From NCBI GenBank assembly GCA_008632985.1, contig QPGO01000025.1, forward strand, positions 1-64,000: a DNA stretch of 64,000 nt, given 5' to 3'. Below are positions 1-60,715 of the stretch, one piece after another (within the stretch, counting starts at the first letter, position 1; each line of letters starts with the position of its first letter). The notes beneath the pieces were generated by a model. The model saw only the letters and a program-made list of their open reading frames with translations, did not search any database and was not told where the DNA came from. Source of the DNA: Psammoneis japonica (lineage: Eukaryota). Made by a program: the position numbers and the translations under genes.

Positions 1-464
1 AATCATCATCATCAAGACCTTCCCTGATGAGGGCTTTGATTACTCCCTTGCTTAACTTCGTGTTGGTCCTGCGTTTGATACAACAGAACAACAGAGCTTG
101 TTCACAAAAAGCGGTTTCGTGGCTTTATTTTATGTGCGTTTGCTCCCCTAGTCGTCAGTGCCACGTCATCTCAACGAGCGGTGGCGGCGGGCGGCGGGCG
201 CCAATGCGCGTTGAGGCCTGATATCTTCGCGATGTCTGGCGCCCTGCCCGGCGATCGGCTGCAGGGCGCTTTACTGCCCCGGGGCGCGAATGCGCGCTTG
301 TTATCCCGGCGTCTGACTGTGGTGAAATCAGACGTAGGAGTTACGAGCATACGTTAAATCAGTCATGCCTTGAAGCGGTGATGGCGGGTCCGATGACACC
401 AAAACTGCCGCCCTGGTCAGGGGTGCAGCATCTATCCACACCAGGTGGGTGCTTCTGTAGCATC

Positions 465-19384: not shown

Positions 19385-19649
19385 GTTTTCGCTCAAGTGT
19401 GCAGCCGATGTATTTTTTTGTTTCGTTTTTTTTGTGTGACGAAACAACCAGATGAGACCAAAAGAGGCACGACTGCAACCATCCCCGCCACGTCACCAGG
19501 CAATTTTATGATTACATTCATGTACGATCATCACATCCCGAGGTGACGTCAGACTCGGAGAAAATAGAAACCCCGCATTTATTTTTGAAATCAACAACCG
19601 TCTTTCTCATGCTTTCCGAAACCAGTCCTAAAAACAACCAATGGATTAG

Positions 19650-21030
19650 TCTCTTTGTTCACAGAGGAAAAGAACAAGAGACAGCAAGCGAAGTGGTCGC
19701 CACGTTGGAGTGGCGACATGGAACATGGGTGTGCAGTGCTTCTGACTTGCTGCTGTGAGGGTGCGCCCCCCAACTCCAAAGTGAGGAGCAGTGGAGGGAG
19801 CTGAGACCAGAACAGGGGCAGTTTCTGGTGTCATGTTGGCATCATCAGTGGTTGCAGCTCTTGCAGTCTTGAAAGCATGAAACACCACAAAGCAACAAAG
19901 GCACCAGCAACCAGCAGCACAGAGTCGCTGCTCTCGAAGAAAAAAGAGGAGAGTCTCTCTCCCGAACCCCCCACATCTCCCAAAGGAGCAACACACCCAT
20001 GGTCACAACTGCCACAGTTATTTTTGGGATGCACAATTCACACACCTGATGGTTGCAAGCACATGTGCCACCAAAAGCCTCAAATTTGAAGCACAGCAGT
20101 TGTGTGCACCAGGCGCGACCCCCACACCTTGAAAACCACACCGGCCCACTGCTGTGAATGGAGCTCACAATCACTGTCATTTTGTGGTCACCTGGCCCAA
20201 ACACAAGAACCAAATGACAAGATGCAAGCACATGAATTTGCCCAATTGTGTCAGAAGTCACACCCAACTCTCTTCCAATGCTCTTCAGCTGCGCCATGTG
20301 GTGCGCAATGCGCAGTCATTTGCAGCAACAGCAACCTGAGAGGGAGAGCAGCTGTCTCTTCTTGTGTCCCTTTGTGTCACACCTAAGACTGAAGCAATCT
20401 TCAGAAACACACTTGTTGCACCAACAATGTGCCCTCTTTGTTTTCAGGATGCTGGGCTTCTCCTCAAACAAAGCCCCTCTCAAGCTCCCAGCCACAGGGG
20501 CAGAGCTGGCGTGTGTGTCTCTTTCCTTGAACAGCCCTCCTCATGCCTTCTCCTCTCCCACCTCCTCTAAAACATCACATTTGGAACACTTCCTCAGTGC
20601 ATCAAGAGGCAGACAATCATCATCACAACAGCAACAAATGCAAGGTTGAGCGTGGCACAATGTGCAGCTGGCTGGGATGTGAGGAAGTGCGACTTTGTGG
20701 CTGCACACATCACCAGTTGTGCCAGATCATTTGAAGACTGCCAAGATCCTCATCACATTGATTGAAGAGGCCTGTGATGAAGATGACACTGACATGAGAT
20801 TCTGTGAGAATGGTGCTGAGCTCTCGAAGCTTTGGTTTGCCAGCAATGACTTTCCAACCAACAGAATCGAAGACCATTCTGGATGCCCTTCTTCTTAAGT
20901 CAACAATTTGACATAAACATGTTTCTGTGCTCGGACACTCATCATAATTAACCTCATGTGTTCATTGAGAAAACGAGACACAGCGGTTCAGCGTGCAATT
21001 CAAGAAGAGAACAAGGCACCTACAAGACAC
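19650..21030. other. TpA/CpG-depleted hypermutated block D3
   Basis: Very few TpA; coding-like remnant near 20720-20898 without Tyr. Confidence 0.8.
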
Positions 21031-22179: not shown

Positions 22180-22631
22180 CTGGTCGTAAAGTTTGACTGA
22201 TCGTTCTGTTGATGTCGTTGCCAATAGATTAGCTCCCTAGTTTTAATCACAGAGTACGCATATATTAGCAAAAGAAGCTTCAGCTTTTTGTTGCGATCGT
22301 CAATCGTCACCTGTCTTTGTTAGCTGCGCTCTGCTGGCTGCGACGACTCCCTCCGTCGTCGCTCGTCAAATGGGAATCTGGAATTCATATCTCAGTCGTG
22401 AGTCAGTCGTGCATGCCACTCTATTTCCGGGTCCGGGAAAAGTTCCGATCCCGACGAGTTCGCTTTCTTCCCGCACTTTCACGTGTAGCAACCGCGGCCA
22501 GAAATGCAATTGCCACAAGTGCGAACGCAAAACAAATAAACTATCAACGCAAAAAGAACAATCGAACAGAATCACAATCTATCACCACAAGACTTTACTA
22601 CAAGAGCCTGAAGCTGATATTATAAGCAAGC

Positions 22632-28254: not shown

Positions 28255-29729
28255 ATGAAAGTAACCATGTCGAAGCCTCTTCTCATGTACCAGTTAGGAA
28301 CCAACAATTGGCAGCGCGAAGGCGAGTTCGCTCCTGGCTCGGGCATTCTTCACCAAGCTCATCACGGCGCATTCAACGAGATGGAAGGTGTCACGTGCTA
28401 TTCCATGTACCCAAGTCAGAAACAAACCCCTCACGAGGATCCGCTCGTGGAAGTCTTCAAGTTGACCCACCCCATTCCAATCTGTGAATCGGCGTCGCCC
28501 GTCAGCAGCTATCGCTGGCACTCCATGTCGGACGAGGAGTTTGAGGCATACAAGAAACGTCTAGAAGACGCTGTTTATAAGCAAATGGCCGAGGCCGAGG
28601 CCCGTGAAGGAACAACCTTTTCCGTTGCGGTAGCCCACCACACGTTTCTGAACCCTATCGTTCTTCGAAGTGTTCTTAGGAGACGTCATGCGGAGGGCAA
28701 GCCGAAATGTGCTCTTGTCTGCTTTGTCCATGGGACAGGTAAGTGATGATGGGGTCGGGATTCGATTGCTATGAAGCACGTTTATCCATGCGTTGTTGTG
28801 TACTGACATATATATTCTATCTTTCTGCTATAGCTCTCAAAATGTACGTTCACGAGCGCGATCAAGACATTCCTGGAGAGTTCCCGAGTCGCTTCTGGCC
28901 CATGCTCAAGGAATCCAAAGTCTTTGACGACGTGAACGGCGACGGTGTACAGCTGTGCTATGCCATTTCCAAGCAACAAGTGGACGCCTTTAGCGAAATC
29001 TTCCCTTCGTTTCCCCGAGATAACATCAGAATATCGCCGAATGGCATTGACCAAAACGTATTTCACCCGATTGAGGGTGCAACGATTGAGAGCGTCCTTT
29101 CCAAGTTTTCAACCGTTCACTACGAAGGGAGCCCCCGCACGGCTACGCCCATTGGCACGAGTGCCATTAAGCACATTGTGATTATCGTGTCCAAGTTTGC
29201 CGACTGGAAGCGCATTCCTGCGCTCTTGTACGCCGCCTCGTCGTTTGAAAAGGCGCTGCCCGGCACGGCTCTTGTGATTGTGGGAACCGGTCCTCATGAC
29301 GCGCAAAAGAAGCTTCAGGATCTTGCCTATGAAACGCTTGGATTGAAGCAGTGCTACTTCTTGGGACCTCAACCCCAGACGGTGCTTGCAGAGCTCTACA
29401 CAATTGCGTCTGTAGGTGTCTTTCCGAGTTACAAGGAACCCTTTGGGCTGGTCTTTGTCGAGTGCATGAGTACGGGGACACCCGTCATTGGAGCTCGTTC
29501 GGGTGGACCAAAGGACTTTGTCACGGAGGACGTTGGTCATCTTGTTGTGGAAACGGATGATCTTGAGGAGCTTGGAAGGAGGCTCGATGAGCAAGTGCAA
29601 GCCGCCATCAAGGACGATTGGAAAGCGTCTCGCGGCGAAGCTTGCAAGAAGCTTGTAGCTGATCGCTTTAGTGTCATGAAGCAGTGCAAGGAGCTACTGG
29701 ATTTCACGAGGGAGCATCTTGATATTTAG
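28255..29729 (+). CDS. GT4 (group 1) glycosyltransferase; intron 28739-28833
   Basis: VHGT, ISPNGID and FPSYKEPFGLVFVECMSTGTPVI motifs; GTAAGT..TAG intron in frame. Confidence 0.9.
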
Positions 29730-29802
29730 ATTTGATATTTACACTTTTTAGATTACCATGTTTGAAAACTCTTGAATACAACGAACAATACAACATACGC
29801 AA

Positions 29803-30630
29803 CTACATTTCGACACGATCGTCTTCCAACTCTCTTTTTTCGCCCTTGCGCACCGCGTGTCCAGCTGTCGAGAGTCCCAGGTTTGCCAGTAGCTCTCGCA
29901 ACAACGCAGCCCCCTTGATCTCGGCCAACTCGCTTCCGATCGTCTTTTGGAGACGTTGCGGCGAATCATTATCCTGCATTTGAATCATCACTTCTGCGAG
30001 AGTGAATGAGCCAAGGAGCCTGCCTTGGCTGGATACATCTGTCAAAGTGTTCTCTCTCCTACGAATATGCCCAGTTGCAAGGGCATGTAGAGCTTCCGTA
30101 ATGAAGCGTCTTTCTTCATAAAGAGCAAAGTGTCTCAGCTCTGACATGTTTAGGTCAGGTGTCTCGGGGGGCGGAAGATTCATGCCAGCGACGAGTGTGG
30201 CATGGATGGCGGAGCATATCGTCAAGAACTTGTCTTGGTCGTATTTTTCAACCAGTCCTTCATTTTCGTCCACGCAGACGGATGCACATTTTATCCCCTG
30301 ATCGGTATCCGCTGGTTGCCATCCAGCAGATAGCACGATCTTACCCTCCCGATCTTTGTCATCAAGATATGACAAGTGCCGAATGGGATCCTTATTCATG
30401 TTGATCTTCGATCTCTCATGATGAGTGACCCATGAGCCGTCATCCCATGCCGTGTACTCGTGTGAGTCAATCTTCTCGTCACAAACCGGACAATTTGGTG
30501 CAAAGAGGCGATTTTTGCTCACAATTGCATCAATTGTGCAACGAGGGCAAAGACAATGTCCGCACGGTATCAAATGAACCACGTCATGCTTGCCTCGTAA
30601 GAGAGGCCTCTGACATTCTTCACACTTCAT
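29803..30630 (-). CDS. RING-finger-containing hypothetical protein
   Basis: CEEC..PCGHCLCPRC..CPVC. Confidence 0.7.
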   Translation of the reverse strand: MKCEECQRPLLRGKHDVVHLIPCGHCLCPRCTIDAIVSKNRLFAPNCPVCDEKIDSHEYTAWDDGSWVTHHERSKINMNKDPIRHLSYLDDKDREGKIVLSAGWQPADTDQGIKCASVCVDENEGLVEKYDQDKFLTICSAIHATLVAGMNLPPPETPDLNMSELRHFALYEERRFITEALHALATGHIRRRENTLTDVSSQGRLLGSFTLAEVMIQMQDNDSPQRLQKTIGSELAEIKGAALLRELLANLGLSTAGHAVRKGEKRELEDDRVEM

Positions 30631-30804
30631 CCCTGTTGTCCTTTTGGGCTATGATAAGTTCTTTGGCGTGTCACCTGTCGCGGTGAGAAAAACTTCAAAC
30701 GAAAACTTGAACCGAGAAAAATGTGAGAAGCCGACTTACCGAAACTATCCATTCCCGAATAATAAGATTCAATTTTCGAAATTTCGGAAGCGGCTATCGG
30801 TGGT

Positions 30805-31442
30805 TGGTGATTGCAGACTTTTTCGTGTCGGTCGGGCATGCAGTCGGGGGGTCGGGCAGTCGGTCCGTCCGAATTTCAGAGTGTGTCCCTCGGATGTCGG
30901 AACGGTGTGTGTTGTTTAGTGCAAATGGATTATTGGATTTGCAGAATGATCATTGAGGACGTTAGAGGTCATGGGGAGACATCCCAAACAATCGACAAAT
31001 TCCCTGCGATGGGTGCGTGGAACTGTTTTTCAGGAGAGCTCGAAAGTGCTGCAAAATTGGGATTGCCGGCGTGCCACATTGACGAATTCATCAAGCTTTG
31101 AATGAAGACAATCATTGACCCCTCAGTGGTCAGTGATTGCAGACTTTTTTGTGTCGGGCAGTCGGGGGGTCGGGCAGTTGGGCAGTCGGGTTGTCCACCC
31201 GCTTTTGAAAGTGTGCCCCTCAGATTTTGGAGAACGGCGTGGGTTGTTTGGTGCAAATGATGTGCTCGGATTTGTGGAACAATCATTGAGGACATCAGAG
31301 GTTGTGGGGACATCCTAAAAATCAGCAAATTCCCTGCGACGGGTGTGTGGCATGGTTTTTCAGGAGAGCTCGAAAGTGCTGTAAAATTGGGGTTGCCAGC
31401 GTGGCATGTTGAAAAATGTGCCCAGCTTTGAACAAAGACAAT
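30805..31442. repeat. Diverged tandem duplication, unit about 320 bp (30805-31112 and 31133-31442)
   Basis: Shared blocks such as gtgattgcagacttttt and tttttcaggagagctcgaaagtgctg. Confidence 0.85.
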
Positions 31443-31464
31443 GTGTCGTGAATTCTACATGAAA

Positions 31465-32470
31465 TGGTCATGTTGGAAAAGATGTGTCAAGCAGTGAGTG
31501 TGTTTGTGCGATGTGCTGTTTTGGCAACAAATTGGAAAAAAGGAGTGTCTGCGCACTTCGCTGCAGCCCCAAAAATGGCATGAGCCATCAAGTGCAATGG
31601 TCATCTGTGTCACCGGTGCGGTGGCCACGCCACTGCTGTGCTCCAGAGTCTACACTGCCGCCATGCATGCAGGGCCCTGCGGCCTCAGCAGCACAGCAGG
31701 GCTCTGTGCATGCAGCACAGGCAATGTGCATGCAATGGCACACACCCACAGCCACAAAGAAACACACGCAAGTGGTCAATGCTCCCCGCAGGCCTGGTTT
31801 GTTGTGAACTGCACACAAAACAGTCACATTGTTGGAAAACACATGTCGAGCAATGAGTGTGTTTGTGCGATGTGCCATTTTGGTGACAAACTGGAAAAAA
31901 AGAGTGTCCGTGCACCTCCCTGCGGCCCTGAAAATGGCGTGAGCCATCAAACACAATGGTCATCTGCATCTCCGGTGTGGTGGCCATGCGCAGCATTGGC
32001 AACACATCATGCAACGGCACACACCCACAAAGAAAGACAAGCAAGTGTTCAATGCTCCCCGCAGGCCTGGTTCTTGTTTGTCCACTGCAGCAATGTTCAC
32101 AAGCTAGACAAGGACCAAACCAATGCAGGCTTGCACTCTCCCAAGAAAACCCAGGCTGGATGGCAAGGGCCAGAGGGCGGGAGAGGTGGGAGCATCAAAG
32201 ACCATCCATTTCGACTTGCTGTTGTTGTCTCAAAAGAACAAGCAAGCTTCATTGAACGGGTGGCTCACATGTTGCTGTGCGTTCAATGGAGTTGGGAATC
32301 TTGCTTGGTGCATTGCTTGAGGCCAGCAGCTGTTGCTGATTTTCTTGTTTGTCCACTGTGCAGCGACATTCACAAGCTGGACAAGGACCAAACCAATGCA
32401 GGAGTGGAGAGGGCTTTGCTGGCACAGGCTTGCACTCTCCCAAGAAAACCCAGAGGCTGGATGGCAAGGG
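31465..32470. repeat. Hypermutated tandemly duplicated repeat units; 32190-32340 is related to 39590-39690 and 39940-39995
   Basis: gagtgtgtttgtgcgatgtgc twice; gacaaggaccaaaccaatgcagg twice; gacttgctgttgttgtctc at 32212 and 39612. Confidence 0.8.
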
Positions 32471-35132
32471 CCTCCAACTCCTCCAAAGGAGGTGCAAGTG
32501 AATTTGGGAGGGAGAGGTGGGACTGGCTGGTGGGCTGTGGCACTCAAGGCACGCAAGGGGTTGCGGGGACATGGTTTTCAGGGAGAAGTACAAAGTTCCC
32601 ACCGGCTGACATGCATTGTGAGAAATTGCGCATGACAGGCTCTGCTTGCATGTGGAGGTGTTGAAGCATTTCATCAGAGCGCCAGCAGCCCAAGAGTCAG
32701 ACAATGTCAGTGTTCACTTGGCACACAGCAACCCCATGGCACCGGTGGCACAAAGGCAGTGCACAGAGACATCTGATGGGTTCAAACTGAGGTTCTGGGG
32801 GCCAAAGACAGTGACGGCAGTGCAGAGGATGGCCGCAATGTCAGCTGGGCTGACAAGGTGCCATGCTCCATCATGAAAGTGTGTGGAGAGGGGGGTGTCC
32901 GGGAGCATGCTGTGGGCGTGCAAATGTAACACTCGACGTGTTGCTGCTTTAACTGGGCAAAGCTGGGGGTGGCCAGAAAGGTCTGGGCTGATGACTTCAC
33001 CGTGCACACCGTTCTTTTGGTTGGTGAATGTGAGGGTGGTGAAGGTGGTGGCTGCAAGCTGTGTGGCTTGTGCTTGGCGCAGATCAAGGCACAAACCACT
33101 GGCGGAGAGAAGGATGTTGACAAGGCAGAAAGGGGTGGTGTTTGAGGGCGTGGCGGTGTGTTTGCCAGGGCACAAAAGGAAGAAAAAGGCCAGAGCAATC
33201 ATGTCAGTGATTGCTTGGGTGCCTGGGTGTTGGCCAAGGGCAGCAGCGGAAAGAATCCAGCACAGGACAGCGACTCTGTCTGGCAGAGGATCTTGCTTCT
33301 TGCAGCAACGGATTTGTTGGGCAAGTTGGAAATCCAAACCGCCTTGTGGTGTGAGGCGCGGGTCCGGGGACCCCATTGCAGCAAACGTTTGGCCAATGGA
33401 CTGCAGGGCATCTTCAGCAATGTGTCAACAGACGGGATTGCCATGTGGTGTGAGGATGCTGATGCGGTGTCAGTGGAGGTAGACCTGGATGCAGAGGATG
33501 GGATTGATGGCCACAGTGTCGCAGAAGTCGGTCCATTTTTCCCAATGGGCGTTGGCGGCAGAGGCACATGAAGTGGTGATGGTGAGAGTGACTGCTTGTT
33601 GTGCAGCACAGAGATCATGAAGGAACGCAGTTGGGTGGCAGGGTCCACAAGTGCCGAGGTTTGCTCTGAGGATGACAAGAGTTAAAGTGGTGCAAAAACT
33701 CAGTGTCAGTGAGGGATTGCAAGCATGAGGCATCATCATCAGCGGTGTTCTTGAGAGGGCCCGGCAGGCAGTCATGTGGGGTGAGGTGCCAGTGGAAACA
33801 TTGGCGGCAAACTTGGGGACACAAAAGGGGGGCACGGACTTTGGTGGCAGTTGAGGAACCTTTGCATTGCCAAAACATGGTGTGAAAGCTGTTGGTCCAT
33901 TGGAGGTGGGTGCGTTCCCACATGTCAAAGCATTTGGAGGCTGCACGTGTTTGCAGCATGATTGGTGTTGGTCATGGAGCAGGTGGGATGTTTGCAGGTG
34001 ATGAGATCAGATGTGACGGCTTTGGGGAAGGGCATTTGCCATGATGTTGGACCTGTTGATGTTTGACAGTGTGCATGTGCCAAAGGACTGAACTTGAGTT
34101 TAGTTGCCCATGGCACGGCATCTGCGCTGGTGGGCAGGAGCACTCCTCCTGCTCCATGCCTGGCGGCATCATGGCATCCATGCACAGTGGGTTCAAGTGG
34201 GGCTGGTTCTTGGATGTGAGCTGGATGATGTTTGACAGTGGCACAGAGGTCTCTGAAGTCATCCATGATTGTGTGGAAGGTGGGTGTGAGACTCACACAG
34301 GAGTCAGGTGTGGCGCAGTGCAGCAGCTCTTGGAGTTCCGAAAACAAGCCACGCGATCCGGGGATTGCTGTTGACAGTGAGCTCACTGAGAAGGTGGTGG
34401 CAGTTGGAAGCGGTTGCTTGATGATCACGCTGGCAGGGGAAGTCCTGATGCAGTGCAGTGTGGAGTCATGCAAGGCAACGGTCGGTGAGGCGCAGTGTCA
34501 TGGCATGGGTGTTGATGAGCCAGCCCAGCACCTCTTTTTGTGTTGACCAAGTTGTGTTGCCTTTGCACAATTTCTTTGCTGAGATGGGTTCTTGACATTG
34601 TTTGGTGTCATTGGCATCAAGCAGTCAAAATGTGTTGTTGAGGGCTGTCATGATGGTTTGCAGAACATTGAGCCGGGAGCACTGTGTTCCTTGTGAGGCA
34701 CCAATGCAGTCATCTGCACACATGTCAACACATTGTAGACATCGGCAGCATGTGTGATGCAGGTGTGGGTCCAGCGTGGCTGGCAAGGGCATGGCCAGTG
34801 TTGAATCTCTGAGTGGTGCAGTGCGCAATGGCAGGCAACGGCTGTTTGCCACCTGTTCCAGGCGGTGGGGCAGTGCCTGAAAGTTGTGCTGCTGGAGTCA
34901 GTTGGCCAAGTTGGTGCCAGTCTTGGCTGCAACACAAAATGCTGGTGGCGAGTTTTTTCCAGCCCATGGGCAGCCTGGCTGGCATTGCTGCTGAGGGTGG
35001 TCCACCAGGCAGCAATGGAAATGCAACAGCCAATGTTGGTGCTCGGTCCAGTGCAACGGAGAGATGACAAAAACCATCGGACATGTCCTTCTTGAGCAAG
35101 CAGATGCGTCCTTTGGATGGGTCAGTCAAAAG

Positions 35133-35577
35133 TGCAACACACAGCTGCTGACAAGAGTTGATGCATCACGGCGACGTGTTGCAGCCTTTAAATGTCACAA
35201 AGGGCGTGACAAAATGACCTTTTGTCTGCATGCATGCTGCATTGTGAATTCACAGCGGAGTGGTTCATCGCAACCATTGGGCAGGAGGCCAGGGGTTCGA
35301 AACCCTGAGTGGGAGTTGTCTGCAGCAACGTTGATCACTGTCGAACGCGTAAAACTCTGTGCAGTTCTGCGTGTTCCTTCGTGCGCACCCACACTGTTCC
35401 GCCAAAACCGTGCAGTGTCAGCACACGTCAGTAAAGAGCCGCATGGACGCGCGATGCATGGGGAGGAGTGCAATGTGCAGCTGCCAATGAGAGTTGATGC
35501 ATCACGGCGACGTGTTGCAGCCTTCAAATGTCACAAAGGGCGTGACAAAATAACCTTTTGTCTGTGTGCATGCTGCA
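35133..35577 (+). mobile_element. Miniature LTR element (TRIM-like): 109-bp LTRs 35133-35241 and 35469-35577, AAAG target duplication, internal tRNA-type A/B boxes
   Basis: TG..CA termini; purine tract GGGGAGGAG before the 3' LTR; removal restores the RT frame LLRCALLTDPSKG. Confidence 0.9.
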
Positions 35578-35971
35578 AAAGGGCACACCGCAAGAGGCGA
35601 TCAAGCACACGTCCAAACTGCATGGCTTTGACTGGGACGTTGGGTTGGGTGGTGTCATTGGCGCCAAAGCAGGTGTGGCCAACAATGGGGCGTGGGTGCT
35701 GACTGCATTGTGGGGCCACACCGATGGGGCCAATGCGCAAGCCTGGTTGATTTTTGACTTCATTGCATGGAACGACAACCCAAAAACCCTTGTCCATGCA
35801 GCCAGCCATGTCTTCTTGTAAGAAATTGATGCACCTGCAGGCGGACTTGTGTGGACCCCTGGCGATGCTGGCGTTGAGTTCCCTCAGCACTCCAGGGTGC
35901 ATTTGCAATGGTGACTGGGATGTCTCGATGCTTGTGGTGGTGAAGCACCTGGCATGCCGGGTGTTTCTTAA

Positions 35972-36573
35972 GGTGGCACGAGACAAAAATTGTGAAAATC
36001 GTTTCTGCGCACATTTTCATTGAAAATCACGGGAAAATCAGGAATCCGTCGTCACACAAAAGCATTGTGTCTCATTGGCAAACCACATGGGTCGGCATGC
36101 GTGTGATTGCGAGTGTGTCACTCAACGGAAATTCCGTTCGGCGATTGCTCATTGTTCATCGCCTCTTTCTCTGCTGTCTCGGAAGGGCCATGAAAGGCAC
36201 TTCCAAGATGAAAACACTTGTGAATTTAAGCATGCAGACACTTTCTACACTGTCTTGGCTTCCTGCCGAGTGAAAGAAAATGCACCTTTTGACACTTTTT
36301 TCCACTCAAATGTCCAATTCAAAAACTCAGGGCAAAAAAACAGGACCTTTTTTTTGCTGACAGGAACATCTCATTGACACAATCTCGAAACTTGCAGTTT
36401 CTTTCCATGGGCAAGTCAAGGAGACACCAGTTGAGGATGCAGGACACTTGGTTGAAGGAAACGCAACATTTGACAGCGTCCTGGGAGAAGCCGAAGTGTG
36501 ACCATCGCTTTGTGTAGAAACGTGCAGAAATCACACCAGAAAAAATTCCAAACAATTTTCATCTCGCACCACC
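35972..36573. mobile_element. Non-autonomous TIR element with TTAA target site and GG..CC ends (Kolobok-like)
   Basis: TIRs of about 22 bp; flanks TTAA (35968-35971) and TCAA (36574-36577); removal restores the frame PMSCIKKHPA. Confidence 0.8.
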
Positions 36574-39230
36574 TCAATGCAGCTCATTGGCCCCAAATCA
36601 CCTTGGCCGCAATGTAGATGCAACAAATGGTTGAGGCCATGTCGACATGATCTGGTGGCATCATGTGCAATCTGCTTGCCCAACTCATCAGTGTTTGCTG
36701 ATGCAGCAATTGCCTGTCCACATTGTCGCTTCGTGGTGCGGTGCTGTTGCTGGCCAAACCTTTCCGCCTGCAGTGGTGGTGGCACAATGGGCTCTTGGTT
36801 CACAGTCCCTGAACTAGAGCCATTGCCAACAACCTGTTTGGTTGTCCAGCACACGTTCGCCCATTCAAACAGATTGTCTTGCTCTTCCTGTGTGTGGCCA
36901 TGATGGTGGTCCACATGGGGCTGCCACAATTGGAGTTGCGTTGGCCCTTTAGATGGCAGGGCAAGCACCGTGAGTTGCCTGGGGCGTTGACAGGCAGGGC
37001 GATGTTGTTGCGTGCACATCGTTGCTTGACGTCCCGTGATTGTGCGTTCGGTCGAGCATGCAGTTCATCAAAGCATGTGTTGCACTGGAGGTTGCGCGCC
37101 AAGCTGTTGTCTCTGGGTGTTCCAGTGGCAGGTGCTGGTGCCGGTGCCTCGCCCAATGTCAAAGTTTGGGGTGGGCGCTGACACAGGTGCAGATGGGGCC
37201 AAGTGCACTGTGTGGGGCAAATTGCAGCCCCAGCACATGGATGGAACCTTTAGTGGCCTCGTGCACTGCTGAGCGGGCTGTTGAATGGCACCTTTTGATC
37301 ACTGCATTCCTGTTGGTGGAACCAGCAAAGAAGTTTGATTTGGGTGCACCATTGAAAATCCACTGTCAGTGAGGGGTGACAAAGCAGTTGCACAGCCAGG
37401 TTGCTGGCGCAAACATTGACATCCCATTGGAGGTCCCCAAGGTGGCACATTGTTGGATGCTGTGCTCTGAGCAGTGCTGACAGCAAGACTTGCAATCCAT
37501 CCAATTGATGTTGGGTGGCTTGGATTGTCATCACAACCTTGGTGTCATCTGGCACCTCCAACACCATGGTGTCAGCCAAGAAAGGTGCTCCATCTCCGCT
37601 GTGCATTTGTTGGTGCAGCACATTGCAATGGTCAATTTGGGCAGCTTGCTGTGGCATGGTGAGTCCAAACATGAAAGGACCAAGTCCTTGAGACAGCTCA
37701 TCTTGATCATGCCCGGCAAAGGTGAGCCACACAAGCTTGGTGACGAGATTGACAGTGACTGGTGCTTCAGTGTAAACACCTTGAGCTTGGTGCTGCTTGT
37801 CTGCAGTGTTTTGTGCCATTGCAATGTGCCCGGTTTTCAGTGCGGTGGCCAATCATGTCCACATCGGTGGCAGTTGTTGTTCCTGGTGCACTTGGCAGAC
37901 ACACATTGACTTTGGCACTCCATGTGCACCATGGAATTGCTGCTGCAGGACCTTCCCCCTTTCACTTGCTTGCTGCCTGGCGACAGTGTCTAAACGCTGC
38001 TGGCATTGCTTGGCATTGAGGTTGTCAATGGCATTGATGATGGGCTGCCACTGTTGCGTGATTGGATGACCTTGTCCAGTGCAGTTTGGGAAGTCCCTTT
38101 GCACCTTGCGTTCAAAGCATTGGACCAGCAAGGCATTCTGTGGTTGGGGCGGACTTGGCCAATTCTGCAGCATGGTGGATGCATGGGCATCTTGTTGTTG
38201 CGCAGCCATTGCTGCTGCCTTTAAGAAGTCCAACAGTGGACGGCACTCATCAACTTGATTGGCTGCTGTGGCCGCTCCATGGATTGCCGCAAAAGCTTGC
38301 TTGGGTCCAATGGCGTTTGCAACAATGGGCTCACACAAGCAAATGGCACGTGCATGGACATGCGTGTGCAAACCTTGACAGCAATGGGGGTCTGAGCTGT
38401 GACGGCCGGATGTGGCCCTTCCGGTGTGGCAGTGATTGCTGCCAGCATGGCATCGTCAGTCAATGCGTGCACACCATTTGGTGCTGAGTTTATCAGCAGA
38501 TCCAGAAACTCTGCGATTTGGCACTGGTTGCATGCTGGGTCTCCAACGACTCCACAAACGCAGCCATCCCCCCCATGGTTGTGGCTGTCCCACTGCTGCA
38601 GCAGGACAGGTGGAGATCCAGTGTGACACTTGCATGTGTCTGGTGTGGTTGGATGGTCCTGGCACTCAGCAGTGCATGACAACAGGCATGAGAACATCAT
38701 GCTCAGAGGCTGCTGTGTGCTGTCAAACAAAGCTGCCAGGTTGCATTGGGATTGACCGTTTGCGATGGCAGCAAAGTCCAACATGGCTTCTGCACAGCTG
38801 CGATGATGCAGATCTAAATCGGCAGTTGCACAAAAATCAGCACAGGTGTGCAGGATGCATGGCGGCTGGTGGTTTCCTGGAGGCAGCACTTGTCCAGCGG
38901 CGCCCGCCTGAGGCGGCGGTGCCAGCTGCACTTGTGGTTGAGCGGCTGCTCCTTGTTGCACTGCTGGCGGTCCTTGTGGGGCGCTTGCAGCACGGCGGCA
39001 CTTGCGGTTGTGGCGCACCTGTTGTGCCAGCGGTGCTGGGTGTGCAGGTGGTGGGGGCGCAACACCTTGTGCCGGTGATTGTGCCCCTTGTTGGGGCGGT
39101 TGATCCGCTCCTTGGTTTGACACATTGAAGTGTTGTTCTCATGCGAGTGGACAACAGCGGCGGAGGTGTCGACGCGTTCCAGACGTAGGTGGGAATCCGT
39201 GTGACATTGGGCCCGTAGACTTCTACGTGC

Positions 39231-39548: not shown

Positions 39549-39799
39549 CCACCTAGGGCTGGAACGCGTCTGTCCTGCGTCAAACCAAGGGCATCAAAGA
39601 CTGTCCATTTAGACTTGCTGTTGTTGTCTCGAAAGAACAAGCGAGCTTCGTCGGATGGGTGGCTCATGCATTGCTGTGCATCAATGGCAATCTTTCGTGC
39701 CATGCAGTCATTGTAAAAAGACATGTAGAAATTGTGCAGATCAGTGCCAAGAGCAAACAATCATTTGTCTGTCCATCCACCCTCAGTGAATTTTAATTC

Positions 39800-41691: not shown

Positions 41692-42883
41692 TATGTCTCT
41701 TATTCTACCAAATCCAATCCAATTCATATGATTGTGTCCTCAAGGACAAAAATTGATCATCATCCTTATCATCTTGTTGCGACTTTGCCAATACGTCCAC
41801 CCTCGTGGGAGGGAAAATGGAATTCTGGAATCCTTTTCTGTGATTAATTAATAAATTTATGATCAGGCCCTTCTGCCGACCTGGCTGGATGTCATTGTTT
41901 CACTTAAAATTTTGGGGCCACTTCGAGTTAACAGGTCAAGACTCAAAGACTTCTACGCACTTGTAGTTATCAGGCTGCCTGCCTCTTCTCACTTTTGCCA
42001 TTGCTTTTCAATATATTAAATAATGTCAGAACGGAATATGTACACTAAAGTTTAGGAATGCACTGTTAGTGACAGCACATCCGCCGTTAAGCTTTGACAT
42101 GCATTATTTGATTTGCAGCAGAAAGTGAGCGTTCCAGCTCTCGGTGGGAGAATCCGCATTCTAGTCTCCTATTTCTCCTTTTCTGAGGCCTCCGAGTCAA
42201 GTTCAGTTTCGCTGCTCTTGGCCTGCACTCCAGCAGCTATGTTAGAAGCAAGGGCCGGGCTTCTTGTTCAGGAAAGCGAATGGTTCAATGTTCTCAAAGC
42301 TGTGACCATTTCGACCACTGCCTCAGCATTCAGGATGGACTTCCCTTCATGGATACACTGCCGATTGAAGACAGCGACCTCAAACGCTACCCCATTGTCA
42401 ATTTGACCAGCCCCTGAGGCTGTGTTCCCCAGTGCGTTGATGACGAGCGCACCATTGAAGATCTCCTCCGTGATTCACCGCCTGCCAATGATTGCGTGCA
42501 GACCATGTGGGATTCTTGGGTTTTGCTCCTTGTGCTTCCATCACTGAACGAGTTGCTTCCCAGTTTCATGTCATGATTGAGCGCGTTGAAGATCAATTGG
42601 ATCACACCACCCTCCATTGCCAGAATGGCTTGCTTGATGATCATGCTCCATGGTTTTTCCTCCAGCTTCTCCATCTCCAGCTTTCTGCACCGGCGACCAA
42701 TGTGTGGTTCAGCAACTCAGTTCCTTCACCCCCGTCCCTCTTGTCCAGGGTTAGAAGTCAAAGCAAGATCTCAACTTCTTGGATCAGGTTCATCCCATGG
42801 TTGGTTTTATCCCCGAGGAATGGGTCAAGTCCACCTTCAAGCATGCTGTCCAACTTGGGCACCTCCATCACAACACTGCTTTC

Positions 42884-43914
42884 TGGGATGGGCAAGTTGT
42901 GATGGGGTCAGGATTTGATTGCTGTGAAGCATGAAAGTCCAAGCATTGTTGTGAACTGGGATTTGATTGCATTGTTGTGAACCAATGGACATGACACTCT
43001 GTTGTTCTGAAACAGCTCTCAAGATGTGCGTTCACGAGTGTGAGTGAAGACATCCCCCAAGAGTTCCCGAGTTGCTTCTGGCCCATGCTCAAGGAATCCA
43101 AAGTCTTTGATGATGTGAGTGGCAATGGTGTGCAGCTGTGCCATGCCATTTCCAAGCAACAAGTGGATGCTTTTGGCAAAATCTTCCCTTGTTTCCCTGT
43201 GATGACATCAGAACAATTTGCCGAATGGCGTTGACCAAAACAAATTGAGGGTGCAACAATTGAGAGTGTCCTTTCCCAAGTTTTAATGGTTCGCCACAAA
43301 GGGAGCCTCAAAAATGGCTGCTCCCATTGACACAAGTGCCGTTGAGCTCAAATTTTGGTTGTTGTGTCCAAGTTTGCTGTCTGGAAAAGGTGCATCCCTG
43401 CACTGTGGTGGACCACCTTGTTGTTTGGAAAGGAGCTGCCTGGCATGGCTCTTGTGATTGGGGGAGCCAGTCCCCATGATGCACAAAAGAAGCTTCAGGA
43501 CCTTGCACATGAGGCATTGAAAACCAAAGCAGCACCACTTCTTGGGACCTCAACCCAGGACGGTGCTTGCAGAGCTCTGCACAATTGCATCTGCAGGTGT
43601 CTTTCTGAGTCACAAGGAACCCTTTGGGCTGGTCTTTGTCAAGTGCATGAGCGCAGGGACCCCCGTCATTGGAGCTTGCTCAGGTGGGCCAAAGGACTCA
43701 GTCACGGGGGGATGTCAACTGTCTTGTTGAGGAAATGGATGATCCTGAGGAGCTTGGAAGGAGGCTCAACAAGCAAGTGCAATCTGCCATCAAGGATGAT
43801 GGGAAAGTGGTGTCTCATGGCGAAGCTTGCAAGAAGCTTGCAGCCAATCTCTTCAGTGTCATGAAGCAGCACACAGAGCTGCTGAATTTTGTGAGGGAGC
43901 ATCTTGACATTTAG
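42884..43914 (+). pseudogene. Hypermutated copy of the GT4 glycosyltransferase intron and exon 2
   Basis: Colinear with 28731-29729; frameshifts; Tyr to Cys/His changes (ELYT to ELCT, PSYKE to LSHKE). Confidence 0.95.
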
Positions 43915-43984
43915 ATTTGACACAAACACTTTTTAGACCACCATGTTTCCAGTGCTCTTGAGTGCAAATGAACAAAACAACATG

Positions 43985-44844
43985 TGCAACTGCATCCCGA
44001 CATCCTCTTCTTCCAACTCTCTCTTCTCACCCTTGCGTGCCATGCTCCCAGCAGTTGAGAGTCCCAGGTTTGCCAGAATCTCTTGCGACAACACAGCACC
44101 CTTAATCTTAGACAACTTGCTTCCAATGGTTTTTGGAGATGTTGTGGCAAACAAGTGTCCTGAACTCAAATCGTCACCTCTGCGAGAGTGAAGGAGCCAA
44201 GGAGCATCCCTTGGCTTGTGACACATCTGTCGCAGCACTCTCTCTCCTGTGAGTGTGCCCAGTTGCAAGTGCATGCAGAGCTTTTGCAATGAAGCACCCA
44301 TCTTCATAAAGAGCAAAGTGTCTCAGCTCTGACACGTTTGGGTCTGGTGGTGTGGGGGGTGGGCGGATGAATCACACCGGCAATGAGTGCAGCGTGGGTG
44401 GTGGTGGAGCATGTCACCAACAACTTGTCTTGGTCACATGTTTCAACTGGTCCTTCAGTTTTGTCCGTGTAGATGGTTGAACACTTTCTTTTGGCATGAT
44501 TGGTGTCTGCTGGTTGCCATCCAGCAGATGGTGGCAAGATTTTGCCCTCCCAGCCAATCTTTGTCAACAAGGTGTGACAAGTGCCGAGTGGGATCCTTTT
44601 TCACATTGATCTTTGATCTCTTGTGATGAGCAACCCAAGAGCCTTCATCCCATTCTGTGCATTTGTGTGACAACTCAATCTTCTCATCACAAACCGGACT
44701 GTTTGGTGCAAAGAATCGATTTTTGTTTGCATTTGCACCAGCAGCAGTTGTGCAACGAGGACAAAGACAATGTCCACAAGGTGTCAAATGAACCACGTCA
44801 TGTTTGCCTTGTAAGAGAGGCCTCTGACATTCTTCACACTTCAT
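43985..44844 (-). pseudogene. Hypermutated copy of the RING-finger gene at 29803-30630
   Basis: MKCEECQRPLLQGKHDVVHL matches the intact gene; frameshifted; HEYT to HKCT. Confidence 0.95.
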
Positions 44845-45111
44845 TCCGGTTGTTCTTTTGGGTCATGATAAGTTCTCTGGATTGTCACCATGTCGCGGTA
44901 AAGAAAAACTTCAAACAAAAACTTTGAACCGAACAGGATTTAATTTTCGAAATTTTGGAAGTTTGTGCTGTACGCCGACCGTTTTTGCACGGATTTCCCG
45001 GCACAAAAAATGAAGGGAGCGAGATGCCGCGATGGCATTCCGAGTTCCTTGGCGAACACAGCGTCGATCATTTGCAGGCTACGCTCCCAACTCAGAAAAG
45101 AAGTAGCAACA

Positions 45112-56152: not shown

Positions 56153-56789
56153 CAGTAATGGGAAAAGGTTGGTTCTATTGGGACGTGATCGCTGTGCAAC
56201 AATGCAAGTGCTTTACACTAAATTTAGGATCATTTTGCACTAGTCTAAACGCTTTCATTGAAGCTCTTGATGGAAACGGTTGCACCTGACTGTCACTAGG
56301 GCCCTACTACAAAATCTTCCTGACATCGAATGACCAGAACAGCGTTTTGGCAAGATACAGCTTTCAGTAGGACACCTCAACCGCGACCTCAAGCGGTGGG
56401 TTAGATAAAGGATGGGTTGACTTCATTCAAAATTTCAGTTTTTGGTCTGACAATTTTGTTTAGGAGTCGATAAAACTGTTATGGGCGTACCAATGCCGAG
56501 CGTCCAATTGGAATGACCGTACATTGATAAAGCTCTAGCAACGAATTGTTTATAAATGCGTCAATCGGCACGGTGGATTTTTTAGTCGTGTCCAGCGTGA
56601 ATGTAATATTGTGCCTTGAAAAGATGAATGATTTCGTATGTATCATACCAACAGCGGCCTAAGAACTTTTTTCGCATTTAGAGAAATAGAGCAATGTCAT
56701 CCTCTCTCTGAACCATAGGAGTCAACAACGGATGAATTTAAGACATTGAACATGAATAAAAGTAATGAAGCTTCAACGTCTATTCCCTC

Positions 56790-59700
56790 CGATGGTGACC
56801 AAAAATTTGGCAATCTGCAGCAAGTTCAGCCCCGTCCACCCCAGCCATTTTTTGACTCTCATCCATCGTGTGCACAACAGGGGCCAGCTGGCAGCAGCAG
56901 CCATGCTCTGTGTGTTTTGCACACCCCATGCTTGCTGGGAGACACCTCAGAGGTGGCTCCGCTTTTGCGCTCCTCTTCTTCCTCCACGAGCTCCCCCAAG
57001 CCCAGAGGGGCAGAGTTTGGCCCGCGCTGCTGTGTTTCTTGAAAGTCTCTTTTCCTTTTCTTCGCTGGGTGCTGCTCTGCTTTGCACTGCATTTTTGGCC
57101 ATCAAGGCAGCCAGAGAGCTTTTTTCATTCCTCCTTCTCTTTCAAAACTTGTTTTTTGTGCCACCGCCAGCTGCCACTCTTTTTGTGGCGGAGCCCAAAG
57201 TGCCTGCCTGCTGCAAAGGGTGGCAAGGAGAGCAAGAAGAAAGTGATGCAGCCAGCCTGTCTGCGCTCTTTTTGTCAGCTGGCAATTTTTCAATGCAGCC
57301 AAGAAGGGACAAGAGAGCCACATCCATGCTGAGAGCAGAAAAGCGGGGCAGAGCCATGTCAGCAGCACGAGAGAAAGCGGGAAAACAAGCACAAAAGAGA
57401 GGCGAGAGAGAAATGAAGTCTCGAGAGGAAGGAGCCGCAGATGAAGGTGGGCAAAGAGGGTGTCAGAAGATGGCTTTTTACCCATTCCACCCTTCCACCA
57501 AGGTCCTCACTTGTGCTGTGTGGCAAGCCGCTCTTTTTGTCACCAACTTCCCCCCTGCAGATGCCAGCACGGCCTGCAGGTGCTGCAACAGTCACTCAGT
57601 CTGATGAGGAGTCCATGAACCGCGTGGGAACATTCTGTGTGCTGCCACACGCGATGCTGCGTGGCCACTTTGGTGGTCCATCATTGAAACACTGGGCCCC
57701 CTCAGTGGTCTGTGCCACTCTGGCTGACAAGTTTGTCCAGACCCCGCCGGTCTTCTTTCCACCCCCCCCCAAAATGCCCTGCCAATGTTGGCGTTCAACT
57801 CATCCCCAGTTCCACACCACCAGAAGCCCCATCCACCCACCAATTTTTGGCCATTGACATCAATGTGCCGACAGCTCTGGCTCCCGCGCCTCCTGTGCAC
57901 CTGGCTTGCCTGCCCCTGAAAAGAACCTGTTGAACAAGGCTCACCTCAGCAGTGCATGGGACAAGCTCCTTAGCTGAGCCTGACAAAATTAAGGCAAGTG
58001 GCAAGAATTCAAACAATGACTCCTTGCTGCTGTCTAAATGGCAGATGAGTCTCCACTCAGAGACCGTCACAGGAGCCGAAAGACGTGCAAGTCGGTGTGA
58101 TGGGCTGCTGTCATCGTTCTTGTGAGCCTTGTGGCTCGAAAGCAAACCACATCATGCGCGAACGCGCGGAACTGAAGCACACAAAACTGTGCACGGCAAA
58201 CTAAACAGCACGCGACATTTCACGCGCACCTGAGTCCTGCTCAAATCCTGTCACTCCCCAGTTTGCTTGAGGAGTCACAGAAACAGATTCGACTTCGGAT
58301 GGAATGAAGTTCCAAAACATGAGGGGATGGAGAAGGTTCCAGATTTGGGAGCAACCCCAATGCTTGCTGAGAATGTCAGCAGGGTTGCGGGAGCCTTCGA
58401 TGAAGTGGAGCTCAAGGCAGCCAGAGGCAATCGCCTCGCGCACACGATGGAATGAGAGAGCGGTGTGTCGCTTGTGCAACTTGGAGTGCAGGATGGTGGC
58501 ACTGTCCACAACTGACTTGTTGTCACCGAACATGCAACTGATGTCACGGATCGGGATGCCGAGGTGACACAGGGTGATGCGCAGGTCAACAATCTGCTCA
58601 ACACAAGTCCTTGCGGCAACAAATTCAGACACCCGCAGGTCGCAGTCTCCACGGTGGCTTGCTTCTTAGAGAACCAATCAGCCGGGCATTTGTTGAGGAA
58701 GTGGAGCATTCCCATGACAGAGCATCCGGTGAGCATGCAATGGTGCAAGTTTGCATTGACGCAGTGGGTGGCAGTGACGAACTTGCCAAGGGGCGGTGGA
58801 GCGTCCTTCGGGATCATCTCTTCTGCTTCGCCGCACACAGAGTGCATCCACTCACAGGCCGGAGCAGGGAGATCCGAATGGTCGGGCTCTTCTGTGCGAA
58901 CGCGGAGAGCGCCGTGTCGCATCTTGGAGAGGTGCCCACAGATGCATTTGGCACGATCCAAGTGGCCTTGACGGGGCGCAGCTCGGAAGCCAGACAGTGA
59001 CATGACGGCCGTGGCAATGTCAATTCGACTGAGAGACACTGCCCATTGGAGGGAGCCAACAAGAGACTGGAGCTGTTGAATGCCATCGGGTTCCAGCAGT
59101 TTGGAAGTGTCCAGTTCGGGGTGGTCACCCTTTTCCAGAGGGGACAGGACGTTGGTGGCAGGTTTCTCCCCAAACAGTCATGTGCAGCTGTCGACCATGC
59201 GTTCGATGCACTTGCGCGGAGACAGACACAAGGTGCCGTCAGGATCCTGGGAGAAGTCGCAGCCTGGGTGGAACTCAATCGGTCCCGCACCCTTGAGCTT
59301 GAACTTGTGCTTCTCCATGAGAGCATCAACGAAAGGCTGAGGATCCTTCATGGCAATGGCGAGGTCATCCACATGAACGGCAACACATTCACAGTGGTCG
59401 CCATTCCTGTGCACCCAAATGTCGGGTTCGGAGCGGCAGGGGAAGAAACCTTCAGCTCGCAGGCAGTCGGCGAAGCACTCGTGCCAGTGGAGGCCGGAGC
59501 TGCGCAGTCCACATGGGGCCTTGTAGATGACAAGAATGTGGCCTTCGAGTTTGCCAAATTCGGGTCCGCGTCATCTGCGCGCCATTCCAACGTTGTTGAT
59601 GCCATCAATCAAGCAGGGCTGCTCCTCTTGCCTCTCCTTTTCACCTTCGACCACCTGGGCAGTGTTGGGGGCACCACTTCCACATCTTCTTCTTTGGCAT

Positions 59701-60410
59701 CTCCACCACAACACCCCCCTCTGTCCCTCCTGTCCCTCCCAAACTGCCTTGGGCTGATCCATCTTCCCTCTCCAACTCCCAAGCTTCCTTCTCTGCCCTC
59801 AAACACTCACTCCCAGCTCCCTCTGACTTCCTTGCCCACTCGCCCAAAACAATGCCTCCTGGAAACAAGTGTCAGCAGACCGCTTTGGCACCTCCCATCA
59901 CACCACAACCCCTCAACCCTCAACTTCGGGCCTCACAAATCCTCAGCCTCAACTTCGGCGTTGCTCTCTCCAACCACCTTTCTGCATGCCAAGCCCTCCG
60001 CCTTCTCTGACACCCAACCATGCATCAATGAAGTGCAACTTGTTTGAGGCTTGATCGACATTCAGTGGCATTTTTTCAAACAGCTCGTGATTTTGCAATC
60101 TTCTCGCACTTCGCCCGCGTCATTTTGCGGCGCCTCTGAGCACCCCAAACACCCATGTGTGTGTCTGGCCCCCATCAGGGCTGTCAGACCTTTGCATGAA
60201 CTGTGCTTGTCAACCTTCAAATGCCAATTGTCGCATCAGGTGCGGTTGTGATTTTGGGCGAACCGCTGTTTTTCACCAAAATCGGGCTGTCAATGACAGA
60301 CAAGCCGCGGCTTTCCAGGAAAGGCCAAGAACTGGCGTTTGACTGGCCACAGACATGTCTGCTGGTGCGGTCGTTGTTCTGGAGATCCCGAACCTTCATG
60401 TTCATTGTGC
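56790..60410. other. TpA-depleted hypermutated block D6
   Basis: About 7 TpA in 3.6 kb; includes the Copia remnant. Confidence 0.9.
58254..59565 (-). mobile_element. Truncated Ty1/Copia RT-RNase H with polypurine tract; 3' LTR starts at 58253 and runs left (extent uncertain)
   Basis: KAPCGLRSSG, VHVDDL, WFSKKQATVETAT, MFGDNKSVV, FHRVREAIA, NPADILSK; GGGGAG then TG. Confidence 0.93.
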
Positions 60411-60715
60411 ATGCATTCTATGACATCTTACGAACGGACAAAGTTCGATCTACAGCATCGCTGAATGGCACATTTTTGGCGAACGCGCGCATTGTTAGTG
60501 CGACGAATCCGGGTTATTTTTATCATTTACGAGCTCTATAACACAAATAAAATCGACCGCTAAATTCCGTACCCTCGGCCCATCTTTCTTCTCTCCATCA
60601 CTTCTAACACTGTAACTAAAAACTAAAACAACAAGTCACAAGTCTCATCTCTCAGCTCCTCTGTGCGTAGGCATCGATTTCCTACGACTTCAGTGTCTCG
60701 AGGTAGATTCTAAAA

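Follow-up and report, generated by a model that had tools for sequence, protein, structure and literature searches.

The question raised by this locus is whether the loss of one dinucleotide, TpA, can be a mutation process in its own right or is a mere by-product of the familiar decay of CpG. The stretch that we analysed, the first 64,000 nucleotides (forward strand) of contig QPGO01000025.1 from Psammoneis japonica (assembly GCA_008632985.1; hereafter the window), contains the remnant of a Ty1/copia retroelement from which TpA has nearly vanished while many CpG remain. A preliminary description of this DNA had proposed that A-to-G change at TpA is faster than, and separable from, the decay of CpG. 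We consider it very probable that the window records a real, TpA-specific mutation process that acts at the level of DNA and is targeted to particular regions. The complete statement, namely region-targeted hypermutation of TpA that includes adenine deamination as its chemistry and that strikes a dead Copia element and silenced blocks, has in our view about an even chance of being right.

The remnant lies at 58264..59567 on the minus strand and is the 5'-truncated polyprotein gene of a Ty1/copia element, comprising the end of the reverse transcriptase (RT) and the RNase H region. Pfam RVT_2 (PF07727) matches 59178-59570 on this strand (E = 2.9e-10; 40.6 bits with a cut-off of 31.6), the same domain is carried by 117 of the 118 relatives found at E ≤ 0.001, and tblastn with 5 full-length relatives of around 1890 amino acids aligns their residues ~1462-1895 to 59567-58264 at 61-71% identity. 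Only the last ~430 residues are therefore left. This copy is a dead element because its first ~1460 codons are gone, its frame is broken by a TGA stop and a frameshift (Table 1), and its RT active site reads HVDD instead of YVDD, a motif whose residues Y1528, V1529, D1530, and D1531 are invariant across 19 relatives; it thus has neither the intact YVDD nor the open frame by which an active element would be recognised. The codon ancestral to the stop is uncertain, but judging from the relatives' codons it may possibly have arisen by CGA>TGA.

Within 58254-59565, the 1312 nt highlighted in the preliminary description, only 2 TpA remain (at 58667 and 59524) where base composition predicts 61.8 (observed/expected ratio, o/e, 0.03). 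With the remainder of the window as the yardstick (o/e 0.56), the expectation is still 34.7 (Poisson P(≤2) = 5e-13). The same interval has 71 CpG compared to 103 expected (o/e 0.69), with CA and TG at o/e 1.68 and 1.36, so that the earlier impression of about 2 TpA in 1.3 kb alongside frequent CpG is borne out by the counts. The region is indeed depleted, but its extent has to be redrawn: The Copia homology runs from 58264 to 59567 and sits within a larger TpA-poor block that spans 56781-60419.

At the protein level, the loss is visible at tyrosines. All peptides quoted in the preliminary description are found on the minus strand (KAPCGL, 59505-59522; HCECVAVHVDDL, 59361-59396; SCMFGDN, 58519-58539; WGCSQ, 58345-58359), and the consensus of 36 full-length relatives opposite them is KALYGL, (I)YEYVAVYVDDL, SYMFGDN, and WGYSQ, respectively. 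Tyr occupies 15 columns in at least 80% of these relatives, and the window has kept it in none of them (Cys 9, His 4, Leu 1, Phe 1), whereas 204 of the 231 columns with other conserved residues are unchanged (Fisher P = 3e-13). It had been considered that intact copies might share these residues, which would have spoken against mutation, but the intact relatives have Tyr there. Conserved Arg is kept at 13 of 19 positions, and all 6 losses are to Cys, His, or Gln.

The fate of TpA and CpG could be compared position by position using 80 metagenomic loci of this Copia family, 73 of which were mapped codon by codon onto the window. The patterns used to scan for these loci contained Tyr, so that unmutated copies were favored and mutated ones selected against. 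Over 1257 shared dinucleotide positions, the average relative has 62.7 TpA and the window 2, while CpG number 49.1 in the average relative and 69 in the window. If a family-TpA or family-CpG position is defined by presence of the dinucleotide in at least half of the 73 relatives, none of 18 family-TpA positions is retained (TG 11, CA 5, CT 1, TT 1) compared to 12 of 16 family-CpG positions (Fisher P = 3e-6). Outside of TpA and CpG contexts, only 5 of 181 nucleotides that are conserved in at least 80% of relatives differ in the window, so this copy is young by the measure of ordinary decay though all its family TpA have been lost. Taken with this low background, the 2 retention values mean that TpA was lost at a far higher rate than CpG, and in this respect the two losses can be separated, as had been proposed; their location, however, is common to both.

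The same relatives speak to the idea that the family or its transcripts are intrinsically poor in TpA, e.g., by selection against UpA in RNA. A mild shortage is certainly general, given the o/e of 0.56 in the rest of the window and a median of 0.70 among relatives. However, across the homologous stretch, TA o/e values of 76 metagenomic relatives lie at 0.43-0.98, with none below (median CpG o/e, 0.66), and 0 of 1541 500-nt intervals in the 80 loci, as recovered with the Tyr-containing patterns, fall below 0.15; TpA poverty is therefore no trait of the family, while a CpG o/e of 0.69 in the copy is simply the family's own level. Given that conserved Tyr were lost as well, including invariant catalytic and structural ones, we regard an origin by composition or selection as refuted and leave it next to no probability. 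The copy is also broken, and non-coding and pseudogene blocks of the window are equally depleted.

Three Tyr-poor relatives from other public assemblies deserve mention here, i.e., P0074 (1384 amino acids; contig of 46.8 kb), P0106 (354 amino acids; 3.4 kb), and P0112 (301 amino acids; 81.7 kb). Where Tyr is conserved, their residues include Cys and His but, in contrast to the window, frequently also Arg (Y 9, R 7, C 6, and H 6 of 35 columns in P0074; R 5 and C 3 of 11 in P0112). The change from Tyr to Arg (TAY>CGY) in P0074 and P0112 would take hits on both strands. Possibly, all 3 are gene predictions made from hypermutated copies in other organisms.

TpA loss in the window is confined to discrete regions. 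Six sharply bounded blocks (Table 1) add up to 20.6 kb or around one third of the window and have TA o/e values of 0.014-0.078, CpG o/e values of 0.13-0.54, and CA+TG o/e values of 1.51-1.93, compared to 0.56, 0.97, and 1.14, respectively, in the rest; GC content is 0.55-0.57 in TpA-poor DNA and 0.48 elsewhere. Over 128 non-overlapping 500-nt intervals, TA o/e is bimodal with 39 intervals below 0.15, 84 at 0.3 or above, and 5 in between. It correlates with CpG o/e (Spearman 0.67), and every TpA-poor block is also CpG-poor, yet within the TpA-poor intervals CpG o/e ranges from 0.06 to 0.85 (median 0.33) with TpA at its floor throughout.

Table 1. Coordinates of TpA-poor blocks, the reference copy of the segmental duplication, and lesions of the Copia remnant in the window (o/e, observed/expected ratio; for blocks, TpA counts and their o/e come first).
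Feature	Position	Strand	Details
TpA-poor block	458..3291		7 TpA, o/e 0.04; CpG o/e 0.14
TpA-poor block	5140..7211		2 TpA, o/e 0.014; CpG o/e 0.13; 1822-nt TpA-free run
TpA-poor block	19647..20896		4 TpA, o/e 0.053; CpG o/e 0.24
Copy A, reference	28789..30715		normal composition; open GT4 glycosyltransferase frame 28743-29729 (+), second open reading frame 29803-30648 (-)
Largest TpA-poor block	30963..39186		31 TpA in 8224 nt, o/e 0.069; CpG o/e 0.44; no recognisable protein family
TpA-poor block B	42388..44932		13 TpA, o/e 0.078; CpG o/e 0.30; 42968-44932 is a dead copy of 28789-30715
TpA-poor block with Copia remnant	56781..60419		8 TpA in 3639 nt, o/e 0.044; CpG o/e 0.54; CA+TG o/e 1.51
Frameshift	58629..58631	-	found by tblastn and alignment; 2 letters missing here in some other genomic copies
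In-frame TGA stop	59178..59180	-	relatives have CAG, CGC, AGG, AAG, CGG, CGT, CGA, and others
RT active-site motif	59364..59375	-	HVDD (CAT GTG GAT GAC), YVDD in relatives; TAT/TAC > CAT

Because TAA and TAG are almost gone from the blocks (1.4 and 0.8 per 1000 trinucleotides compared to 8.6 and 8.9 elsewhere), TGA is the only stop left and all 6 frames carry open reading frames (ORFs) of 100-390 codons; one of them, 59001-60047 on the plus strand (348 amino acids), runs antisense to the Copia remnant. A Pfam scan of 96 of the 104 block ORFs of at least 90 amino acids (leaving out ORF 2771-3130, which spans N, and 7 over the Copia part) gave only 3 weak matches below cut-off (CNRIP1, zf-RING_5, and Prog_receptor). 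Apart from the Copia remnant and block B, the blocks thus hold nothing recognisable, and 4 of them are without retroelement features; Rfam has no match across the whole window.

Some further observations concern individual blocks. The left kilobase of the block around the Copia remnant (56781-57855) is single-copy by word depth (59.4; one contig spans 52131-57855) and as TpA-poor as the repeated part of the same block, so that either it is an old, diverged repeat or mutation has spread past the repeat. Units of ~330-360 nt (77-89% identical) are repeated in tandem or nearly so both at the left edge of the 8.2-kb block and within it (30797-32472 and 35131-35577), and a 98-nt stretch (32192-32289) recurs unmutated just outside of it at 39591-39687.

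An internal control for the direction and context of change is provided by a segmental duplication of ~1.95 kb whose copies A (28789-30715) and B (42968-44932) are 80% identical. Copy A, of normal composition and with a Pfam match in its GT4 frame, served as the reference. Of its 58 TpA, 53 are changed in B, and 44 of these 53 have become TG or CA (TG 24, CA 20, TA 5, AA 5, CG 1, GA 1). The 115 CpG of A have met a similar fate, with 96 lost and 82 turned into TG or CA (TG 51, CA 31, CG 19). With strands folded, A>G from A to B occurs at 0.40 per base after T compared to 0.06-0.12 in other contexts, and C>T at 0.38 before G compared to 0.05-0.09 otherwise. Merely 1 of 14 Tyr codons in the 2 ORFs of A survives in B, and 11 have become His or Cys. 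In this older block, both the TpA and the CpG losses are near completion.

Both strands are hit, because neither split between the two outcomes differs from 1:1 (TG:CA 11:5 on the sense strand of the retroelement, P = 0.21; 24:20 in the non-retroelement pseudogene, P = 0.65). The A-to-G change of the preliminary description is therefore half of the picture, with T-to-C at TpA about equally frequent as the opposite-strand view of the same event. This bears on the possibility that A after U was converted to inosine in a transcript by an ADAR- or ADAT-like activity and that the edited RNA was then reverse-transcribed and inserted. The element is after all a retrotransposon, and TA>TG is somewhat more frequent than TA>CA on its sense strand. 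Nevertheless, this excess is not significant, 5 of the 16 sense-strand changes are T>C and as such impossible by editing, and a copy with HVDD for YVDD could not have made itself. The same signature moreover marks a duplicated host-gene segment (24 TG, 20 CA) and the 4 blocks without retroelement features, and we consider editing before integration very improbable.

The A/B comparison also helps to judge whether TpA loss might follow from the handling of mismatches, i.e., from an activity linked to the repair of 5-methylcytosine (5mC) deamination or from GC-biased gene conversion that resolves toward G:C in methylated regions. Such a link would explain why TpA-poor blocks are always CpG-poor and why both dinucleotides end as TpG or CpA. 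Yet there is no general drive from AT to GC, because once TpA and CpG are set aside, A>G (0.06-0.12) does not exceed C>T (0.05-0.09), and the T:A pair in TpA, unlike a deaminated CpG, presents no mismatch. Prior CpG deamination is not needed either, given that TpA is gone from the Copia copy with 12 of 16 family CpG left. New TpA mutations in the chlorarachniophyte Bigelowiella natans come without changes at CpG according to the available part of a recent preprint (Mettrop et al., bioRxiv 10.64898/2026.01.13.699255). We therefore think it quite improbable that mismatch handling is the cause, and that TpA loss is no by-product of 5mC-deamination repair appears a reasonable conclusion for which mutation accumulation in B. 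natans provides the best outside support.

Two further properties of the process can be read from the duplication. The near absence of TA>CG (1 of 58) means that one hit removes the target, as expected of a dinucleotide-specific enzyme acting on a palindrome. Furthermore, repetition itself is unlikely to be the trigger, since only B is mutated though both partners are duplicates. TpA have re-formed in B at 3 of ~280 aligned CA or TG positions where other (background) transitions run at 5-6%, and there is an excess of 20 CA<>TG double differences between A and B (13 TG>CA, 7 CA>TG). Within the bounds of small numbers and an assumed polarity, these values suggest that newly arising TpA continue to be removed. 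The double differences, together with position 59030-59031 of the Copia remnant that is described below, could have arisen if an ancestral TpA or CpG was resolved differently in the copies, or if a TpA or CpG existed briefly as an intermediate.

Modified bases can give systematic, transition-like miscalls in some long-read data, and a base-calling artefact in heavily modified repeats could hence in principle mimic the pattern. A single public sequencing run, X1, contains the stretch (X2 and X3 cover little of it, and no RNA data set is listed as containing it), and its contigs show 0 differences from block B over 2.8 kb (42000-44840; depth ~60). This agreement speaks against an assembly error confined to this record but gives limited support because X1 may be the assembly's own sample. 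The outcomes are mutually exclusive (CG at 1 of 58), while independent miscalls on the two strands would give many CG and leave many TA. Genuine decay is also indicated by the stop, the frameshift, and the further substitutions of the Copia copy, so we find an artefact extremely improbable.

Summed over the Copia part, X1 depth reaches 30,000-165,000, and the family is therefore highly repeated in the genome. Of the 83 places in this part at which X1 differs from the window, 21 are listed; at 2 of these, 58762 (60% of depth) and 58834 (13%), a CA of the window corresponds to TA in other copies. Five listed places read CG in other copies and CA or TG in the window, another 4 read TG or CA in other copies and CG in the window, and 59030-59031 is CA in all other Copia copies but TG in the window. 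Beyond 59567, other genomic copies continue with different, TpA-bearing sequence, and 2 loose-end consensus sequences past this point differ from each other by TG versus TA. Genomic Copia copies thus differ in their TpA state at the places listed.

In terms of mechanism, the data show a process with TpA as its context that strikes both strands alike, stays within blocks, runs to saturation, and differs in rate from CpG loss, whereas its chemistry, its targeting signal, and a role in defence are our interpretation. We infer that the A of TpA would be changed to G on either strand, most likely by enzymatic deamination to hypoxanthine that pairs with C, so that each TpA seen on one strand would end as TpG or CpA. 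The first hit would destroy the palindromic target, which would leave double hits (CpG) almost absent, and the process saturates fast and apparently keeps removing TpA that newly arise. The same blocks lose CpG to TpG or CpA more slowly, most simply by ordinary 5mC deamination, and this difference in speed is why the young Copia copy lost all its family TpA yet keeps most CpG. As targeting signal, silent and probably cytosine-methylated chromatin seems a better candidate than sequence repetition because the blocks are CpG-poor too and only the dead duplicate is affected.

The palindromic nature of the target means that T>C on one strand fits as well as A>G on the other, and thymine could be attacked instead through a TpA-specific oxidation or modification, e.g., to 5-hydroxymethyl- or 5-formyluracil by a TET/JBP-type dioxygenase, followed by T>C via mispairing with G. 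Oxidised thymines do mispair with G, and the hydroxymethyluracil of dinoflagellates is enriched at TpA. Conversely, tRNA adenosine deaminases naturally act on A after U and would bring a ready specificity for TpA. The B. natans study favors adenine deamination as well, in the form of a proposal (10.64898/2026.01.13.699255). Overall, an attack on thymine seems unlikely to us.

Several points weigh against region-targeted adenine deamination at TpA as we have set it out. The whole argument is built on substitution patterns in one 64-kb window rather than on an enzyme, a modification, or new mutations, and A>G would look identical to T>C on the opposite strand. Because the blocks are poor in CpG as well, a single process acting on both self-complementary pyrimidine-purine steps is possible. 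The ancestral states of the Copia copy can be assigned at conserved positions only (18 TpA and 16 CpG), as its relatives have at most ~67% nucleotide identity (67.5% for the closest among the 80 metagenomic loci), and the polarity from A to B is assumed because the gene in A is open and matches a Pfam family, not by reference to an outgroup. Finally, many genomic copies that match the window at 90% or more may share part of the TpA-free state, judging from the 21 of 83 differing places listed, and amplification of an already mutated copy could possibly account for part of the signal.

Outside of the blocks, the window carries genes as long, uninterrupted ORFs. The best named homologs of its kinesin are diatom proteins at 55-65% identity, which places the window among diatoms (Attheya 64%, Cyclotella cryptica 63%, Thalassiosira 61-62%, Seminavis 61%, and Skeletonema 60% identity) compared to 51% for Triparma and 44% for Tribonema and an oomycete. 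An LCIB/theta-type carbonic anhydrase homolog is encoded at 22626-23885 on the plus strand (Pfam LCIB_C_CA, E = 4.5e-44), and its similarity to diatom and green-algal entries in the PDB is low alike; comparison of this protein and the kinesin with the ESM Atlas gave leads on the lineage at best. The N-terminal signal peptide of the carbonic anhydrase homolog has Phe directly behind it (…RRTEA/FFGG…), a combination typical of red-type complex plastids, and the protein may accordingly be targeted to a plastid of this kind. In DNA of normal composition, a direct repeat of 145-151 nt (51534-51678 and 51981-52131; 95% identical with an 85-nt exact core) has an X1 depth of 477 compared to ~59 and several joints, and is therefore a short dispersed or tandem repeat.

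If region-targeted TpA hypermutation is what happened here, then the process is peculiar neither to one species nor to viral inserts, differs in rate from the CpG decay driven by methylation although the targets are the same, and does not depend on repetition of sequence in both partners. Diatoms are ecologically dominant and several are genetically tractable, so that both the enzyme and the targeting signal would become testable, with a comparison of lineages to narrow the candidates. There is also a practical side, in that the open frames of TpA-free blocks invite spurious gene calls and hypermutated copies can end up deposited as "proteins".

Our literature searches for TpA-specific hypermutation turned up no report beyond the B. 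natans preprint and none for diatoms, while those combining RIP-like processes (RIP, repeat-induced point mutation) with diatoms and transposable elements returned only fungal papers. Ty1/copia elements of diatoms are known as CoDi elements, and the remnant belongs to a Copia lineage with polyproteins of ~1890 amino acids that is abundant in aquatic metagenomes. The terms TpA, dinucleotide, RIP, and hypermutation are absent from the available part of the paper by Maumus et al. 2009 on diatom Copia elements (PMC2806351), and the available passages of a mutation-accumulation study in P. tricornutum do not mention such a signature (PMC6604790).

The closest known system is therefore the hypermutation of TpA to TpG or CpA in integrated giant-virus and virophage DNA of B. 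natans (Mettrop et al., 10.64898/2026.01.13.699255). In mutation-accumulation lines, 231 of 302 new nuclear substitutions fell into 2 integrated viral regions, and 230 of these 231 were A>G or T>C, all placed at TpA by the authors; the regional rate was ~6e-7 per site per generation or ~1000 times background. TpA-poor 1-kb windows rich in CpA+TpG cluster in this genome, RT and DDE transposase domains are enriched in TpA-poor genes, and the authors propose an ADAT2-like DNA adenine deaminase, pointing out that the A edited by ADAR and tRNA deaminases is preferably preceded by U. The window agrees with this system in A:T>G:C change at TpA on both strands, with TpG and CpA as outcomes, and in confinement to discrete regions, which here hold the Copia remnant, a pseudogene, and DNA without a trusted Pfam match and would be in a silent state. 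Unlike the rhizarian B. natans, the host is, judging from its kinesin, a diatom-like stramenopile, and its targets are not viral inserts but a Copia element, a duplicated host-gene segment, and unrecognisable DNA. Depletion is near saturation (o/e 0.01-0.08) in contrast to the giant-virus region (nucleocytoplasmic large DNA virus, Rho 0.45). Our blocks also show strong CpG loss, while "CpG" does not occur in the part of the preprint available. New mutations were counted directly in B. natans, whereas the window is known from its substitution footprint alone. What we describe is accordingly a new instance, in a new major lineage and with new kinds of targets, of a process known from a single recent preprint.

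As in the decay of methylated transposons by 5mC deamination, CpG has given way to TpG or CpA in all 6 blocks (82 of 115 in block B). This is clear in 5 of them (o/e 0.13-0.44), while the 1.3 kb of Copia, at 0.69, stay close to the 0.66 that is the median of the family, and 5mC would be the source of the loss. A model diatom is known to methylate its cytosines (PMC6604790). This decay leaves the loss of TpA unexplained, however, and only about one quarter of family CpG is gone from the Copia copy. Editing by ADAR or ADAT enzymes and mutation by APOBEC3 likewise are transition hypermutation of selfish elements, and a deaminase would be involved in the window as well. They differ in acting on RNA, or on one DNA strand while reverse transcription proceeds, and leaving a one-strand signature, whereas the window has both strands affected and non-retroelement DNA too.

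In its logic, fungal RIP of ascomycetes is the closest classical analogue, for it likewise inactivates repeated or foreign DNA where it stands, through transition hypermutation at specific dinucleotides, and the blocks left behind have sharp borders and an odd composition. RIP usually hits both copies of a duplicate, unlike the duplication studied here, in which B is mutated and A keeps its normal composition. Its chemical direction is opposite, since RIP changes C to T mainly at CpA and thereby creates TpA and lowers GC, while the window loses TpA, gains CpA and TpG, and rises in GC. Diatoms might accordingly possess a standing defence that resembles RIP in reverse, in which a chromatin-guided DNA adenine deaminase acts on silenced DNA, including single-copy pseudogenes, and continually erases TpA (and with it TAA, TAG, and Tyr codons) as CpA and TpG interconvert via short-lived TpA. 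Shared by a stramenopile and a rhizarian, such a defence would be an old form of immunity that is widespread among eukaryotes, and a comparison of the two lineages could reveal its enzyme. We offer this view tentatively, as an idea whose chances fall somewhat short of even.

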